Source: Anaeromyxobacteraceae bacterium (GTDB taxonomy: Bacteria; Myxococcota; Myxococcia; Myxococcales; Anaeromyxobacteraceae). Taken from it: a stretch of 64,000 nt of DNA. Every line of letters begins with the position of its first letter. The stretch's first letter is position 1. Positions 1,145-60,935 of this stretch are shown here, one piece after another. The translations under genes were made by a program, and so were the position numbers. Where the stretch lies: contig JASGHJ010000002.1 of assembly GCA_047602405.1 (NCBI GenBank), positions 2,464,001 through 2,528,000 on the forward strand, given 5' to 3'. A model generated the notes under the pieces. It was not told the DNA's origin and did not search any database. It saw only the letters and a program-made list of their open reading frames with translations.

Positions 1145-4100
1145 TCAAGGCTGGAACCGCGCGCGCACCTCGACCCAGTCGAGCACCACCTCCGCCATCG
1201 CCGCCGACTGGCCGTTCGGCCGCTTCGGGACGACCGCCACGACGAGCGAGGCCCCGGAGCCGAAGGAGAGCTGCTGGAGGACGACCGGATCGGTGATCGC
1301 GAAGGTCCTCGGCGTCGGCGACGCCGGCGGATCGGCGGCGCTCCCCAGCACCGCCCACCCGGCGGGCGTCCAGCCCCACACCTCGTAGCCGTCCACCGCC
1401 GTGCGCCCCTCGTAGCCGCGCCCGCCGGCGGACACCGCGACCTCGAGCGCCGAGGGCCCGGCGAGCGCGCTGAAGGCGACGGGGACCTCGTAGAGGAAGG
1501 CGGGCCGGGCCGCCGCGCCGTCGTCGTAGGTCCAGTGGCCGGAGGTGCTGTAGCCGTTGCCGAAGAACGCGGTGAGCTGCTTCGTCGTGCGGTCGTACCC
1601 GATGCCCTGGAACCAGTCCTCCTCGGGCTGGTCGCCGAGCGGGAGCCGGAACGTCCAGGCCTTGCCGGCGGGGTCCCACTCGCCGAGCTGCCAGTACGGC
1701 GCCCCCGAGAAGACCACCGCCACGTCGCGGCTCTCGTCGAAGGTCACGCTGTGACGGAAGCGGGAGGACGGGTTCTGGTCCTTGTCGTCCTGCGAGGTGA
1801 ACGTGCCCGCGGTCCCGTCCCAGGCCCACGTGTCGCTCGCGTAGCCGAGCCCGTACTCGTAGCCGCCGACGACGAGCGTCTGCTTGCGCACGGGGTCGTA
1901 GACGAGCCGGTGGTCGCGCCGGCCGATGGGCGGGCCGGTGGCCGCCGAGCGCAGCGTCCAGGCGCCGGTCGCCGGGCTCCACTCGCGCAGGTCGCGGTAG
2001 GTGCACTCGCACCCGCTCGTGCAGCCCGCCGGGACGGTCGGGCTCCCGTCCGCGCAGGAGGAGACGTTGTACTTCCAGCCGCCGTAGGCCACGAGCACGT
2101 TGCGCTGCGTGTCGAACGCGACCGCCGCGGCGTCGCGCGGCCAGGGCACCGCGCCCGTGCCCGTGCCGCGGTTCACCCAGGCGGAGCCCGCGACGTCGTA
2201 CTCCCAGATCTGCCCGGACTGCGTGAGGTGGACGATGCGGTCGCGGTTCGGATCGTAGGTCGAGTCGCCGTTGCACTTCGCGCAGCCCTGCGGGCTCGTC
2301 GGCGGGAAGCCCGCGCCGGTGCCGGCCGCCTCGAGCAGGCTCCAGTTCATGAGCTCGAGGTCGAGCCGCCAGACGTCGTTGTAGAGCCCGTTCGTCTGCA
2401 TGCCGCCGTACATGAGGACGCCGCCGCGCACGGCGTCGGTGAACATGCCCTCCGGCTCGCGGTAGACCGGGGTCGTGGCCGCGCGCGCGATCGGCTTCCA
2501 GCGGCCGGCCGCCGAGTCCAGCATCCACTTGTCGGTCGCGCCGCCGCCGGAGTAGCCCCCGAGCACGAGCAGCCGGCTCCGCGTCCAGTCGTACGCGACC
2601 GAGTGCATGAAGCGCGCGCCCGGCGGGTTCGCGAGCGTCCGGAGCGACCACGCGCCGTTCGCGTACTCCCAGAGCTCGTTCACGTACGCGTAGGACGTCC
2701 CGGTCGTGTTGGCGTAGCCGCCGAACATGGCGGCGCGCCCGCGGAGCCGGTCGTAGGCCATGGCGGCCTGGTAGCGCGCCGTCGGTGCCCCCGCGGCGCC
2801 GCCCGCGACCTTCAGCGTCCACTGCGCGGCCGCCGGGTCGTACTCCCAGGTGTCCCCGAAGGCGCAGATCCCGCCGGCCGCGACCGAGCCCGCCGGGCAG
2901 GGCTTCCCGCCGTCGTAGGCGTAGCCGCCGAACAGGACGAGCACCCCGCGCGCGTCGTCGAAGGTCATCACGTGCTGCTGGCGCGGCGCGGGCCACGCGC
3001 CCGCCTTCGGCACCTGGGTCCACGTCCCGTCGCCCGAGTCCCACTCCCAGAGGTCGTCGTGATCGCCGTAGTAGTAGCCGCCGAACATCAGCACCTTGCC
3101 CCGACGGCTGTCGAAGACCGCGACGCTGCCGTCGCGGGTGTCGGGCGCGGGCGGCCCGGCCGCGGGCGTGCGCTTCAGCCAGCGCCCCTCGAGGAGGTCC
3201 CACTCCCAGGTCTCCGGGTCGTAGCCGCCGCCCACGCGCCCGCCGAACAGCAGCGCGCGCGCGTGCTTCGTGTCCACCGCGAGCACCGCGCCCTGCTCCG
3301 AGCCGGGGCGGAGGCCGCCGGTGCCGAGCGCGGTCCACTGGTTGTCCGCGCCGTCGTGTGCCCAGAGCTGCTTCTTGTCCCCGTCGTAGACGAGGGTCCG
3401 GCCGAGCACCCCGTCGAAGGTGGACGGCCACAGGGGCTTCACGGCGAGGTCGGTGGGGGAGATGTCGAGCCGCCTCCACTTCCCCTGCCCCGGCTGCGAC
3501 GCCTTCGCGCCGCCGGCCGCGAGCACCGCCGAGAGCTCCGCGGCGGCGGGCTCCACGGTCCGCGAGTAGTCCTGCGCGTAGACCGCGCGGACGCTCTCGC
3601 TCCGCCAGAGCGTCGTCGGGTTCTCGAAGGTGCTGCCCGCGACCTTGCCGCCCAGCCCCGCGATCCACTCCACCCGCGGCACGGCCCGGCGCGCCGACTC
3701 GTTCCCGGCCGCGTCCACCACCGAGAGCCACATCCGCGGGGAGTCGTTGCCGAGGTTCTCGACCGTCCAGCCGCCGGCCCCCGGCTGCAGCGTCCCGAGG
3801 AGGAGGCCGCCGGCCTGGCGGGAGTGGACCCGGACCTGCACGATGGCCTCGCCGGCGGCGGCGAACGTCGAGGCGGGGAGCGGGACCGTCGTGGGATCGG
3901 CGCCCGCCGCGAGGCTCGCGAGCGTGAGGAACTGCCCCGGCGCGCCGCCCGTCTGCTGCGCGCCCCACGGCACCCGGAGCTGCTTCAGCGTGGCGAGCTG
4001 CATCGAGCCGTCGGCGTCGGGCGGGGTGCGGTCCACCACGAGCGCGACGCCCGGGAGCGTGACCTCGCCGCCCGGGTTGGCGGCGAGATCGACGAGCGAC

Positions 4101-44072: not shown

Positions 44073-44088
44073 CGGCGGTCCGTTGGAG

Positions 44089-44394
44089 GTGCGTGTTCGT
44101 GGGGGCGAAACGCGCCTCCGCGACGCCGGCCGGCTTCGTCGGTCTGTGTATGGAACCGATGCCCGGAACCGGGTGTGCTGCGATCGTGGAGGCCGCGGCA
44201 GGCCTGCACGCGAGTTGCGTGTGACGGCACAGCGCGCTGCGCGCGCCATGCCGTCACACGCCCTCGTCGCTTGGCCTGCAATCGCTAGGCTACTGGGAAC
44301 GTGGAGAGCCCGACCTCCGCCGGCCGTCGCTGCGGAGGTGCGTTTCGCCCTCGGGCGTAGTGAACGGTGATCGGCCGATACTGCTGGGTGGTGA
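44089..44394. repeat. Structured non-coding element, copy A (inverted homolog of 45976-46282)
   Basis: Outer stem 44103-44121/44332-44350; inner stems 44198-44204/44273-44279 and 44217-44229/44249-44261; 31-bp exact match (44250-44280) to the revcomp of 46090-46120. Confidence 0.75.
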
Positions 44395-44422
44395 GTATTG
44401 AACTGATATGGTTGGACCCGTC

Positions 44423-44461
44423 AACGAAGCCGGCCCGGTCGCAGGGTCGGCTTTTTCGTTT
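44423..44461 (+). terminator. Intrinsic terminator-like hairpin inside the IS end
   Basis: AAGCCGGCCC-GGTCGCA-GGGTCGGCTT followed by TTTCGTTT. Confidence 0.55.
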
Positions 44462-44499
44462 CTGCGTTCGGGCGGCCAAGGCGGTGGTCGACCTGAACT

Positions 44500-44632
44500 A
44501 GAGCGACGGCGGATCAGACTGATATTCGCGGGTTGGGTACCGCATGACCTGAATCCGTCGGGGGCTGCCTCGGTCTAACAGCGGGCATCAGGCTTCACGG
44601 CCCTGCCCATAGTTCATACGAGGATTCCCCTT
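44500..44632 (-). ncRNA. Putative bridge/seek RNA of the IS110 element (target- and donor-binding loops)
   Basis: Two stem/internal-loop modules. Loop sequences TGAACT and GTTAGAC match the insertion-site flanks; ATATCAG and ATTC match the IS circle junction. Exact RNA ends uncertain. Confidence 0.7.
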
Positions 44633-44681
44633 TGGGCCGGACCAAGTCGTCCACCGCCCTCGCCGCCCGAACGCGTCACAG

Positions 44682-45776
44682 CTACGCCTTTAGGAGTTGT
44701 GGCTGGCGCCCGATGGCCCAGACGAATCCCGCCAACTCGCGCGCGATGGCAACGACGACGCGGTTCTTGTTCATCCCGCGTCCCGTGAGCTTCCGATAGC
44801 GACCGCAGAGCCGCTCCTGGGCACGCCAGGCGATTCGCAAGACCTCCTCCGACAAGCCTCGACTTCTCTTCCTGAGGGCAGGGCTGTTCGCTGCTCGGTA
44901 CCGGTAAGCCCAGGCGGCCTCGACGAGAATGCGCCGAGCGTGGCCGTTCCCGGCGCGTGTGATTCTCCCTTGCTGCCGAGTTTCTCCGCTCGAGTGTTCC
45001 GAGGGGACGAGGCCGAGGTAGCCCATCAGCTCGGGGGCAGTGGCGAACCGGTCCAGGTCGCCGAGCTCCGCTGCGAGCACCGTGGCCGTGATGAGGTTGA
45101 CGCCGCGTAGCGACTGTAGCGCCTTCACCAGGGGCATCCGGCTCCAGCTCTCCACGAGCTCCTCGATGCTGCGGGTATGCCGGCGAACCCTCTCCCCCAC
45201 GTCTTCCACCGTCTTCAGGTAGTCCTCGAGGACCCGTTGCTGCGCCTCGTGCTCGAAATGCTGGACCCGAACCCACGCCAGGTGGTCGCGAGTCCACCGT
45301 GTCTTCCCTGTCCAGCGCCGCCCATGACGGAGAAGGAACTTCCCGAGCTGGTGACGGGCTACGCGCTCAGCCTTCTTCGCGGCATCTCGCGCGCGCTCGA
45401 GATCGCGCATGGCCTCGGTGGCTTCGTCGGGCACGTGGACTTCGGTCAGGTCTCCAGACCTCAGAAACCGGGCGAGCTTCACGGCATCCCGCCGGTCGGT
45501 CTTGACGCGATTGCCGGCCTTCATAGGCACCAACGAAGGCGCGACCACGACGCATTCGACGCCGCCGGCGTTGAGCGCTCGGTAGAGCCCGAACCCTGTT
45601 GGACCAGCCTCGTAGCAGCATTTGATGGTACCGAGCCGTCGCAGGCGCTTCAGCAGTGCCGCGGTGTCGTTGGCGACGACCGCCAAAGCGCTCGGCTCTC
45701 CCCGGCCGGGCTCAGCGACCGCGATGGCGATGCTGTCTGCGTGGACGTCGAGACCGACGAATCGTACGCTCTCCAT
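44682..45776 (-). CDS. IS110 family transposase (DEDD RuvC-like + Tnp20 domain)
   Basis: VGLDVH, CYEAGPTG, KTDRRDA, GLVPSEHSSG, GRITRAGN, VAIAREL; GGAGG RBS. Confidence 0.96.
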   Translation of the reverse strand: MESVRFVGLDVHADSIAIAVAEPGRGEPSALAVVANDTAALLKRLRRLGTIKCCYEAGPTGFGLYRALNAGGVECVVVAPSLVPMKAGNRVKTDRRDAVKLARFLRSGDLTEVHVPDEATEAMRDLERARDAAKKAERVARHQLGKFLLRHGRRWTGKTRWTRDHLAWVRVQHFEHEAQQRVLEDYLKTVEDVGERVRRHTRSIEELVESWSRMPLVKALQSLRGVNLITATVLAAELGDLDRFATAPELMGYLGLVPSEHSSGETRQQGRITRAGNGHARRILVEAAWAYRYRAANSPALRKRSRGLSEEVLRIAWRAQERLCGRYRKLTGRGMNKNRVVVAIARELAGFVWAIGRQPQLLKA

Positions 45777-45975
45777 GGTTGGACCCGCCTCCCGCTGTGG
45801 CTCTGCGCCGTGGGGTTTCGCAGCTTCGCGGAGTAACCCACGTTCGCGTGACAGCGGGTCCAACCATTCTGTCTAACGGTAAATACGATGAGGCTGCGAC
45901 GGGAGCCGTTGGCCTGAACCTGCGGATGAACGATCAGCGCGTCGCCCACCGCCGATGCCAGCCCGTTGGTCGTTC

Positions 45976-46282
45976 ATCAGCACCCGGCATCCACGGCCGA
46001 CGTTAGTTCTCCACGCCCGAGAGCCAAACGGGCCTCCGCAGCAGCGCGCAGCGAGCGACGGGCGAGGCTCCGTCTCCACATCGGGGCAATGCAGGCCAAG
46101 CGACGAGGGCGTGTGACGGCGACGTGCGCGAAGCGCACGGCGTCGTCACGCGCAACTCGCGTGCAGGCCTGCTGCCACGATCACCGCCATGGAACGGCAA
46201 CGGTTCCGGCGATCGCTTCCGTCTCAAACCCGTCCGAGCAAGCGCTGTCGCGGAGGCCCGTTTGGCTCCCACGGCACCGCAT
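45976..46282. repeat. Structured non-coding element, copy B (inverted homolog of 44089-44394)
   Basis: Perfect 19-bp outer stem 46021-46039/46250-46268; inner rod 46091-46172 with apical CGTGCGC-GAA-GCGCACG. Confidence 0.75.
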
Positions 46283-46305
46283 GCCGACAAACGGGAGGGA
46301 GGGAG

Positions 46306-59679: not shown

Positions 59680-60935
59680 CCCCCTGACCTCCCCCCCAAC
59701 CCCAGAGGCTCCCCCGTTTCCAGGGTTAGGGCGGGGCCGGCAGGGGTCCCGGAGCCCGTGTAAGCGCCGGTTCTTGGCCGTCGTGCTCGCGCAGTTTCGA
59801 CGAGCCGGCTTGCGCCGCCGCTTTCGACACTGCTTCGCGGTGAAACGGAGGCAGACCACTCCGGCGCCGCCGGAGCAGTCGGTGAGTTTCGGAGGTCGGG
59901 ACGGCCCGCGCTAGACAGGCGGGGCGCAGGCGGCGCCGAGCACGGCGCCCATGGCCCAGGTGCCGGGCGGGAACACGACGTTCCACATGCCCTTGCGGAA
60001 CAGCTCGAAGGCCTTGCGGTACGCGTCCTGGAACGCCTTCAGCTGCTGCTGCGCCTCGATCCGCTTCCACCGGTCGGACGCCGCGATCTTCGGGTTGAGC
60101 TTGCTCGGCGGTTCCTTCCCGGCCGGATGCTGCCACCACCGCTGCCGGAGCACCCGCCGCAGCCCCGCGAACTTGCGCCGCTCGCCATCCTCGGTCCGCG
60201 CCGCCTGCTTCTCGAGCGCCGCGAGCGCGCCCTTCACCGACTCGCGGTACCGCGCCGCCGAGAAGCCCTTCGGCGGCACGAGCGCGAGCACGGCGCTGTC
60301 GGGCATGTTCCCGTCCTTCGAGAAGAACATCTCCGGCCGCTCGTACTCGCGCCCCGTGCCGAGCTCCTCGAGCGAGGACCAGAGCCCGGGCCAGTGGCTG
60401 CCGTGCTCGACGAGGCCGGCCGCGACCGGGTTCGCGAGCGTGTAGGCCGCCTTCGCGATGACGGAGCCCTCGTCCTCGAGCGAGACCGCGCTGTAGCTGC
60501 CGGGCGCCCAGGCCGACTCGAAGCGTTCGTGGAGGGTGTTGAGGAAGAGCGCGAGGTTCATGTTCAGCTCCTGGGCGAAGCGCGGGAGCTGAGCGAAGGG
60601 GTCGGAGAGGATCAGGTGGTAGTGGTTGGAGACGACGCACCAGGCGTGAAGCTCGATCTTGTGTCGCCGGGCGGCGACGGCGAGGAGGTAGCCGAAGGCG
60701 TTGTTGAGCCGCACGGAGGGCACGAGGAGGAAGAGGCGGTGCAGGCAACGGCGGGTGAACAGGTAGGTCTTGCCCGGAAGGATTCTGGCGGGGAGCGGTC
60801 ATGGCCTCCCCCGCATTCCACGCACCGTGCCGCTCCCAACTCCCTGGATTCCCAGGTCCCCGCCACCCGCACGCCGGCCGTTCCGCGGACCACCGTCCAA
60901 TCGGCGGACCTCTGGGGCAGGGGGGGATCAGGGGG
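59680..60935 (-). mobile_element. RAYT-like (Y1 HUH) element bounded by imperfect G/C-rich inverted repeats
   Basis: CCCCCTGACCTCCCCCCCAACCCCAGAGG (59680-59708) vs revcomp of 60909-60935, CCCCCTGATCCCCCCCTGCCCCAGAGG. Confidence 0.55.
59911..60802 (-). CDS. REP-associated tyrosine transposase-like (IS200/Y1 HUH) protein, frameshift at ~60783
   Basis: MTAPRQ|ILPGKTYLFTRRC..., HUH motif SNHYHL, Y...NPVAAGLV, W.G.WSS. Confidence 0.85.

Follow-up and report, generated by a model that had tools for sequence, protein, structure and literature searches.

RNA-guided recombinases of the IS110 and IS1111 type are already described, and thousands of relatives exist. In the excerpts available to us, IS621 and ISCro4 (PMC11208158, PMC11208160) combine a DEDD-plus-serine active site with a two-loop RNA that carries handshake bases and take palindromic repeats as targets, and the seekRNA systems of ISEc11, ISKpn4, ISPst6 and ISPa11 (PMC11187229) have sub-terminal repeats of 11–13 bp, terminal extensions of 7 and 3 bp, a 3′ RNA in which a complement of the top target strand precedes a match to the bottom strand, a junction promoter and no target duplication. 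In the excerpts reached by a non-exhaustive literature search, only IS621 and IS622 are said to have handshake bases. Closest to the element reported here are ISSfr2, ISSso6 and ISEc45 (ISfinder names taken from plasmid record annotation), for which our literature search returned surveys and Durrant et al. only, and no experimental study. ISCARN28, listed beside ISEc45 and ISSfr2, belongs to a set of six elements whose bridge RNA and guides have been predicted, according to the excerpt of Durrant et al. 2024 (PMC11208160), and the published predicted RNAs of ISSfr2, ISEc45 and ISCARN28 may already show the layout set out below.

We compared with these systems a locus in an Anaeromyxobacteraceae bacterium (assembly GCA_047602405.1, contig JASGHJ010000002.1, positions 2,464,001 to 2,528,000; this whole stretch of 64,000 nt is the window), for which a sequence-only reading had proposed an IS1111-type IS110 element with a bispecific RNA. 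The locus very probably holds a complete 1,470-bp IS1111-type insertion sequence of the ISSfr2/ISSso6/ISEc45 branch, which occurs four times at one 9-bp site in a repeat family and for which conservative, RNA-guided recombination at an AG core is the likely mode of movement (Table 1). The proposed type stands: the open reading frame is intact, with matches to PF01548 (50.3 bits), PF02371 (77.8 bits) and NF033542 (254.8 bits, cut-off 140), and the motifs GLD, YEAG, KTDRRD and PSEHSSG give D10, E56, D94, D97 and S263 (SG motif), which align with the catalytic positions of IS621 and ISCro4; a DEDD RuvC domain (PF01548) is joined, as in the IS110 family, to PF02371 with the SG serine. The parts follow one another as the 7-bp left extension, left sub-terminal inverted repeat (sTIR-L), transposase, 3′ non-coding region, right repeat (sTIR-R) and 3-bp right extension. 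The repeats are perfect (13 of 13 bp, within the 11–13 bp of the IS1111 group), and both the 7 + 3 extensions and the non-coding DNA, ~280 bp downstream of the transposase versus ~100 bp upstream, are as in that group. Comparison of sequences establishes the ends, the catalytic residues, the copy pattern, the two-loop fold with its compensatory pairs and the covariation of guides with flanks; the element has four of five IS1111-group hallmarks and, by analogy, would work like a bridge recombinase.

Table 1. Features of the element, its RNA and its surroundings (positions in the window)
Feature	Position	Strand	Evidence
Whole IS element, 1,470 bp	44405..45874	-	Four near-identical copies; IS-free paralogs; homolog conservation
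Left terminal extension, 7 bp, AG core first	45868..45874	-	Homolog ends; 7 + 3 rule (available excerpt of PMC11187229)
Left sub-terminal inverted repeat (sTIR-L), 13 bp	45855..45867	-	
Right sub-terminal inverted repeat (sTIR-R), 13 bp	44408..44420	-	
Right half of target (core AG + TTCA), host DNA	44399..44404	-	
Left half of target (ACCGTT), host DNA; guides read GTT only	45875..45880	-	
IS110-family recombinase gene, 364 aa, intact ORF	44682..45776	-	Profile matches; catalytic residues
Internal inverted copy of sub-terminal repeat, across start codon	45775..45786	-	
-35 hexamer TTGACG of predicted junction promoter	44419..44424	-	TTGAC at this offset in 44 of 45 elements
Terminator-like hairpin facing transcription from host ABC genes	44426..44454	+	Weak: three overlapping sites, 1.2 expected
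Predicted long RNA; outer helix 44643-44674 with 44464-44495 around both loops	44464..44674	-	
Target-binding loop; stem CCTCG (44619-44623) / CGAGG (44568-44572), inner hairpin 44583-44608	44568..44623	-	Compensatory changes, 40 homologous RNAs
Guide complementary to core + right flank (+1 to +4, weakly +5)	44611..44617	-	Covariation
Guide GTTAG = left flank -3 to -1 plus core	44575..44579	-	Covariation
Handshake-type bases AC, matching first two element bases past core	44573..44574	-	
Donor-binding loop; stem CGACGG (44555-44560) / CCGTCG (44504-44509)	44504..44560	-	
Donor-loop short guide GTC	44546-44548	-	
Donor-loop guide ATATCAG	44519-44525	-	
Donor-loop handshake-type T	44518	-	
ATTCAG, more likely a stem with CTGAT (44513-44517) than a donor guide	44549..44554	-	
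Right arm of host repeat, ~320 bp, ~230-nt hairpin; IS at inner end	44080..44404	-	
Left arm of host repeat, ~350 bp, long hairpin, inverted relative to right arm	45940..46290	+	

By protein identity the closest named elements are ISSfr2 (53%), ISSso6 (47%) and ISEc45 (43%), and an 11-row tree places the element with them in the starred clade (98/99); the join of this clade to that of ISKpn4 and IS5708 has 88/88 in the same tree, which includes two long-branch outgroups. All three named elements share with the present one the AG core, sub-terminal repeats extended by 7 and 3 bp and a non-coding region on the 3′ side, and ISSfr2 and ISSso6 also, by eye, the same loop motifs, but they carry another guide and target, and at below 55% identity the present element is a separate one. 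YEAG, KTDRRD and PSEHSSG can be found by eye in the ISCARN28 protein too (excerpt of PMC11208160). Identity to ISKpn4, IS5708, ISShdy1 and ISPsy16 is 27–31%, over partial alignments only, and the protein is longer than the 330–350 aa of the core IS1111 clade, relative to which the recombinase is, on sequence, a divergent branch. The traits listed above for the seekRNA systems recur here, the junction promoter as a prediction; unlike in those systems, a donor loop and handshake bases are evident. With IS621 and ISCro4 the element shares the traits listed for them and, on the opposite strand, a CT core, but in the available excerpts their RNA lies in the left end and reads 11–14 target nt, whereas here it lies in the right end and reads ~9–10; the long sub-terminal repeats set the element apart as well, and the protein similarity is remote (E ~1e-8). 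Many IS1111 RNAs are multi-loop in the excerpt of PMC11208160, whereas the donor loop of the present element has the form of a simple internal loop. The genome also carries a second, distant IS110 element (~27% identity) in four copies (G000:C1:1256789, C1:1073760, C1:164922 and C2:3207121).

The 3′ region folds as the sequence-only reading had supposed, with two stems that bear a target loop and a donor loop. Its 284 nt reach -136.8 kcal/mol (z -4.5), better than 200 of 200 shuffles; over 40 RNAs the named helices contain 104 cells changed on both sides against 39.5 in shuffled alignments (0 of 500), and pairing drops to 31–47% when the register is slid. Rfam returned only four sub-threshold matches to miRNA-type hairpins, all in the repeat arm. 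All six motifs quoted in that reading are present where it had placed them. Short motifs are common by chance in this genome (TGAACT occurs 1,261 times, ATTC 3,235 times), and the agreement between guide and flank is not chance because it covaries across homologs.

For that comparison both ends were parsed in 48 of 80 genome loci (32 stayed unparsed), from which one element whose donor loop is deleted and two records that were duplicates were dropped to leave 45; 38 of 80 metagenome loci (42 unparsed) gave 31 guide sets, which may partly overlap the genome set. As the null, guides were paired with the flanks of other elements of the same core clade. Counted from the core, the 5′ strand of the target loop tracks the right flank at +1 to +4 in 38, 40, 36 and 31 of the 45 elements (nulls 26.3, 26.7, 16.5 and 17.4), and its 3′ strand the left flank at -1 to -3 in 43, 44 and 31 (nulls 35.7, 26.6 and 16.1), a set that includes three copies from the present genome and four of one other element, and in which, as in all these sets, the homologs are kin, so that every covariation P value is overstated. 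Agreement at +5 is borderline, and at +6 and from -4 to -6 it does not exceed chance. When each guide family of the AG clade is represented by a single element (n = 21), the matches are 14, 16, 16 and 17 on the right (nulls 5.1–8.1) and 20, 21 and 15 on the left (nulls 13.1, 6.9 and 4.9); the 31 metagenome sets give 25, 20, 18 and 24, and 31, 30 and 19. The co-variation of loops and flanks that the sequence-only reading had set as a check is thus found in both collections, and its assignment of TGAACT to the right flank is confirmed.

The same reading had matched GTTAGAC to the left flank. Its GTTAG does read the target, but the last two nucleotides match the element's own end; the identity with the left junction arises from 5 nt of target guide plus these 2 nt. 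The base after GTTAG tracks the first element base past the core without exception, in all 45 genome elements and all 31 metagenome sets (nulls 29.5 and 18.9), which by analogy matches the IS621 handshake guide in the excerpt of PMC11208158; the second such base showed no covariation in either set. The complement of the top strand precedes the match to the bottom strand in the RNA, the order of the IS1111 group. An extension of the left-flank guide to 8 nt through G-U wobble was rejected, -4 to -6 being without covariation. In three homologs (L044, L200 and L203) the guides read a GGGATTA tandem array; that is, they are programmed to a simple repeat.

On the donor side, ATATCAG reads the right donor end, as proposed, and follows its changes in the AG clade at 21, 20 and 21 of 21 (nulls 17.1, 14.5 and 15.4). 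On the left, the covarying donor guide is the GT within GTC, with agreement at 41 of 42 positions in the AG clade (null 29.0) and no covariation in the AA clade (34 of 38, null 32.2). The loops thus covary with target and donor, as in the IS110 family, the donor side in part. ATTC (44551-44554), which had been named as a donor guide, failed over 40 RNAs: it equals donor positions 1–4 in two of them, and its covariation with the donor is 78 against a null of 77.8. The stem of ATTCAG with CTGAT has 61% of cells paired over the 40 RNAs, a weak value, with 93 against 81.8 in the AG clade, and is absent in the AA clade. The donor-loop handshake base tracks target position +1 in 35 of 45 elements (null 27.1), in 22 of 31 metagenome sets (null 8.6) and in 11 of 21.

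These counts bear on the alternative that survives best, a possible but less favoured reading in which only the target loop guides, the protein recognizes the donor through the sub-terminal repeats, and the donor loop is an accessory or part of a precursor. A left donor guide of just 2–3 nt, the long sub-terminal repeats and a target module of ~75 nt fit this view, as does ISEc11, where an RNA of 70–100 nt with target matches only sufficed in the excerpt of Siddiquee et al. (PMC11187229); by analogy with that short RNA, the donor loop may be dispensable. It is, however, the donor loop whose helices are conserved, whose right guide follows the right end and whose handshake base follows the target above chance in the metagenome sets, all of which speaks against this alternative.

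The genome (6.16 Mb, 74% G+C) has four copies of the element, 99.8–99.9% identical, each of the others differing from the window's copy at 1–3 of 1,469 positions. All four have the same six left-flank bases and TTCA on the right, and the question raised by the sequence-only reading, whether other copies sit at unrelated sites, is answered in its favour. All lie inside diverged members of one repeat family, one of them in the other arm type, with flanks that are 66–90% alike over the right 300 bp and 50–81% over the left 100 bp. We infer from a near-identical element in diverged flanks at one site that the insertions were recent and independent. Near-identical left ends were also found on four metagenome contigs from four runs and three studies, with the same 6-bp flank kept; two diverge directly past these six bases and two past 20.

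The repeat family that carries the site has 16 loci in the genome, mostly an inverted pair of 300–350-bp arms around a variable spacer with a total length of ~700–870 bp, the exceptions being one single arm and one fused remnant. The arms all fold into long hairpins, and by a crude screen of open reading frames 12 of the 16 loci lie between convergent genes, at the present locus those of an ABC-2 permease and an AMP-binding enzyme. Most second-type arms (for example, 45940-45990 in the window) have three extra bases within the target position, and the target site is therefore lost. Repeats of the REP, BIME and REPIN kinds are known targets of IS110 elements. The present family resembles them in being multi-copy and intergenic, with inverted palindromic arms, a variable spacer and a position mostly between convergent genes, but its arms are ~10 times as long as a REP (20–40 bp in the excerpt of PMC3733652) and, unlike for REPINs, no Y1/RAYT locus matched them. 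Strong matches to the repeat occur in one of 36 same-genus genomes (G010), with only short, weak matches in a few others, and none was found in other families among 300 genomes of the order. A literature search returned no publication on it, and this paired-hairpin repeat of ~700–870 bp is apparently undescribed.

The repeat itself is probably mobile. A RAYT was considered as its mobiliser and rejected: of six weak Y1_Tnp matches, none carries the arms within 1.5 kb, and the REPIN/RAYT arrangement, short REP arms with a RAYT gene flanked by the same repeats, is not what is seen here. Y1/HUH transposase genes are nevertheless present in the window at ~60,000–60,900 (G000:C2:2524469-2524702, L115) and at L113, L116 and L117, three copies being 97–99% identical over ~1.24 kb and one at 71%, with no link to the arms; beside one such gene (L114, positions 2312-3258) lies a 150-bp tandem repeat in degenerate form. 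Another family of giant paired hairpins, of similar plan, occurs at G000:C2:3323061-3323727 and at least ten other loci; it has no BLAST match to the present arms, a short motif near the outer foot is common to both, and a common mobiliser is possible. In G010 (L128 on C2 and L129 on C9), the outer 40 bp of an arm stand in several tandem repeats and one locus has one arm largely deleted, both of which we regard as traces of processing directed at the repeat's ends. One repeat has in its spacer (G000:C1:2051560-2051620) a stretch that starts with TG and holds a repeated CTGACCCCC motif, single-copy in the genome, which we take to resemble an IS21-type end.

Occupancy follows the 9-mer closely. 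Among 29 arms with an inner end, the perfect 9-mer occurs in four, all filled, and none of the other 25 is filled, five of these being one base off (one each at -3, -2, -1, the core and +4). A less probable reading than the donor-loop alternative, and on balance an unlikely one, holds that the 9-bp guide match is insufficient and that the repeat hairpin ~55 bp away is a second, structural determinant, as for ISPpu10, for which a target stem-loop gate is reported in the excerpt of a preprint (bioRxiv 10.64898/2026.03.19.712850). All four copies do adjoin a hairpin arm, but the genome has no perfect 9-bp site outside the host repeats and no empty one at all (0, with 0.74 expected), so sequence alone can explain the pattern, and the flanks of homologs show no match to the present repeat. 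It is far less probable still that a repeat already bearing the element was duplicated, or spread by gene conversion, to give the four copies, which would make the shared site uninformative on targeting. The repeat's 16 loci and probable mobility would allow this, yet the element is nearly invariant in flanks that differ as described, one copy is in the other arm type, and the covariation of guides and flanks extends to homologs flanked by sequence that does not match the repeat.

The placement of the ends rests on IS-free paralogous repeats, which are 4 bases shorter than the occupied site at the insertion point, and on the 45 homologs, which occupy unrelated sites and vary freely left of -3, whereas past the left AG they keep five bases conserved (A/T 33/12, C 43/45, A 44/45). 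The parser demanded AG 7 bp before a repeat starting with ATG, so those letters are conserved by construction; the bases between AG and ATG were not fixed by it, and an unconstrained repeat search gave the same ends. Because the paralogs are shorter and the homologs conserved, AG is the core, 45874 the first position of the element and 10 bp, not 6, the distance between the repeats in the circle junction. On these comparisons the target is GTT-AG-TTCA, and ACAGA is part of the element rather than of the host. In 19 of 45 homologs the left junction is AG and the right junction AA, which places the crossover just before the core; these homologs and the IS-free paralogs show short-core recombination with no target-site duplication, as in the IS110 family.

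The left end given by the sequence-only reading is off by 4 bp, an outcome that this reading had itself listed as refuting it (ends of the element that map elsewhere), and four bases within the left extension are those that it had assigned to the host target, an error comparable to that in ISEc11, where a claimed 4-bp duplication was reassigned to the left end according to the excerpt of PMC11187229. Its register, with a CAG core, a 13-bp target GTTAGACAGTTCA, 6 bp between the repeats and ATTC as left donor guide, is natural from one locus, where CAG stands at both junctions, GTTAGAC lies in the loop and ATTC matches its own donor (with borderline agreement in the AG clade alone, 51 versus 46.8, P 0.054), but is hardly credible given that the target has no match at up to one mismatch in the 6.16-Mb genome (three unrelated ones at two), that the disputed bases are absent from IS-free paralogs and conserved in homologs at unrelated sites, and that a 6-bp junction breaks the 7 + 3 rule stated for IS1111 elements in the same excerpt and leaves a -10 of at best 3/6 (hand-counted).

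Joining the corrected ends would create a promoter. The circle would place TTGACG 17 bp from CAGAAT (45866-45871), a predicted -10 with 4/6 of the consensus, and in 44 of the 45 elements TTGAC precedes a -10-like hexamer, at 17 bp in 35 and 18 bp in nine. In the integrated element a promoter scan detected nothing, which fits a promoter that comes into being only on circularization. The internal inverted repeat pairs with sTIR-L in a transcript from outside (z -3.8), a pairing not seen in the transcript from the predicted junction promoter (z -1.2); it is kept at 11–12 of 12 positions in six of the closest relatives and at no fewer than 9 of 12 in 16 of 40, and the modelled folds suggest that it silences read-through by hiding the start codon. 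No circle junction, the right end joined to the left, was found in the sequencing runs searched or among the fetched loci; 26 viral-contig matches to the junction pattern were set aside as chance, with repeats of only 4–9 of 13 and no -35. The runs that carry the stretch were five DNA runs with a small share of it, and no RNA run.

By analogy with IS621- and ISEc11-type systems (excerpts of PMC11208158, PMC11208160, PMC11187229 and PMC13626964), a mechanism can be proposed. Excision as a circle would join the right-end -35 to the left-end -10 and switch on recombinase and RNA, as in IS621 and ISEc11. The target loop would pair with both strands of GTT-AG-TTCA and the donor loop with 7 nt of the right end and 2–3 nt of the left, the sub-terminal repeats supplying the remaining donor recognition; on the opposite strand, this reads as a CT core with the guides in the order of IS621. 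The DEDD and serine active sites would then exchange strands beside the core via a serine intermediate, with no target duplication, and the handshake bases would bias the reaction towards insertion. Once integrated, the element would be kept quiet by the internal repeat hiding the start codon in read-through RNA, and the repeat family would give it multiple places to land between genes, the part that REP sequences play for IS621. Activity and reprogrammability of the present element would follow from the same analogy.

The least ordinary part is the target repeat, and the work exposes a large family of such repeats serving as a landing site. More tentatively, the IS1111-type branch might work as a pared-down counterpart of the IS621 bridge system, keeping handshake bases and a reduced donor loop of ~2 + 7 nt, and the present member might be programmed to a giant paired-hairpin repeat whose copies act as a natural mismatch scan; a structural gate may be contributed by the hairpin, and the repeat itself may be diverging from the guide. 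A recombination assay would have to be built on the corrected target, core and donor; the design of the sequence-only reading would have supplied the wrong substrate. For the family at large, the covariation suggests that the IS621 type of handshake pairing also holds in the IS1111-type branch and that the donor loop is under selection there, which bears on the question of bridge RNA versus seekRNA.
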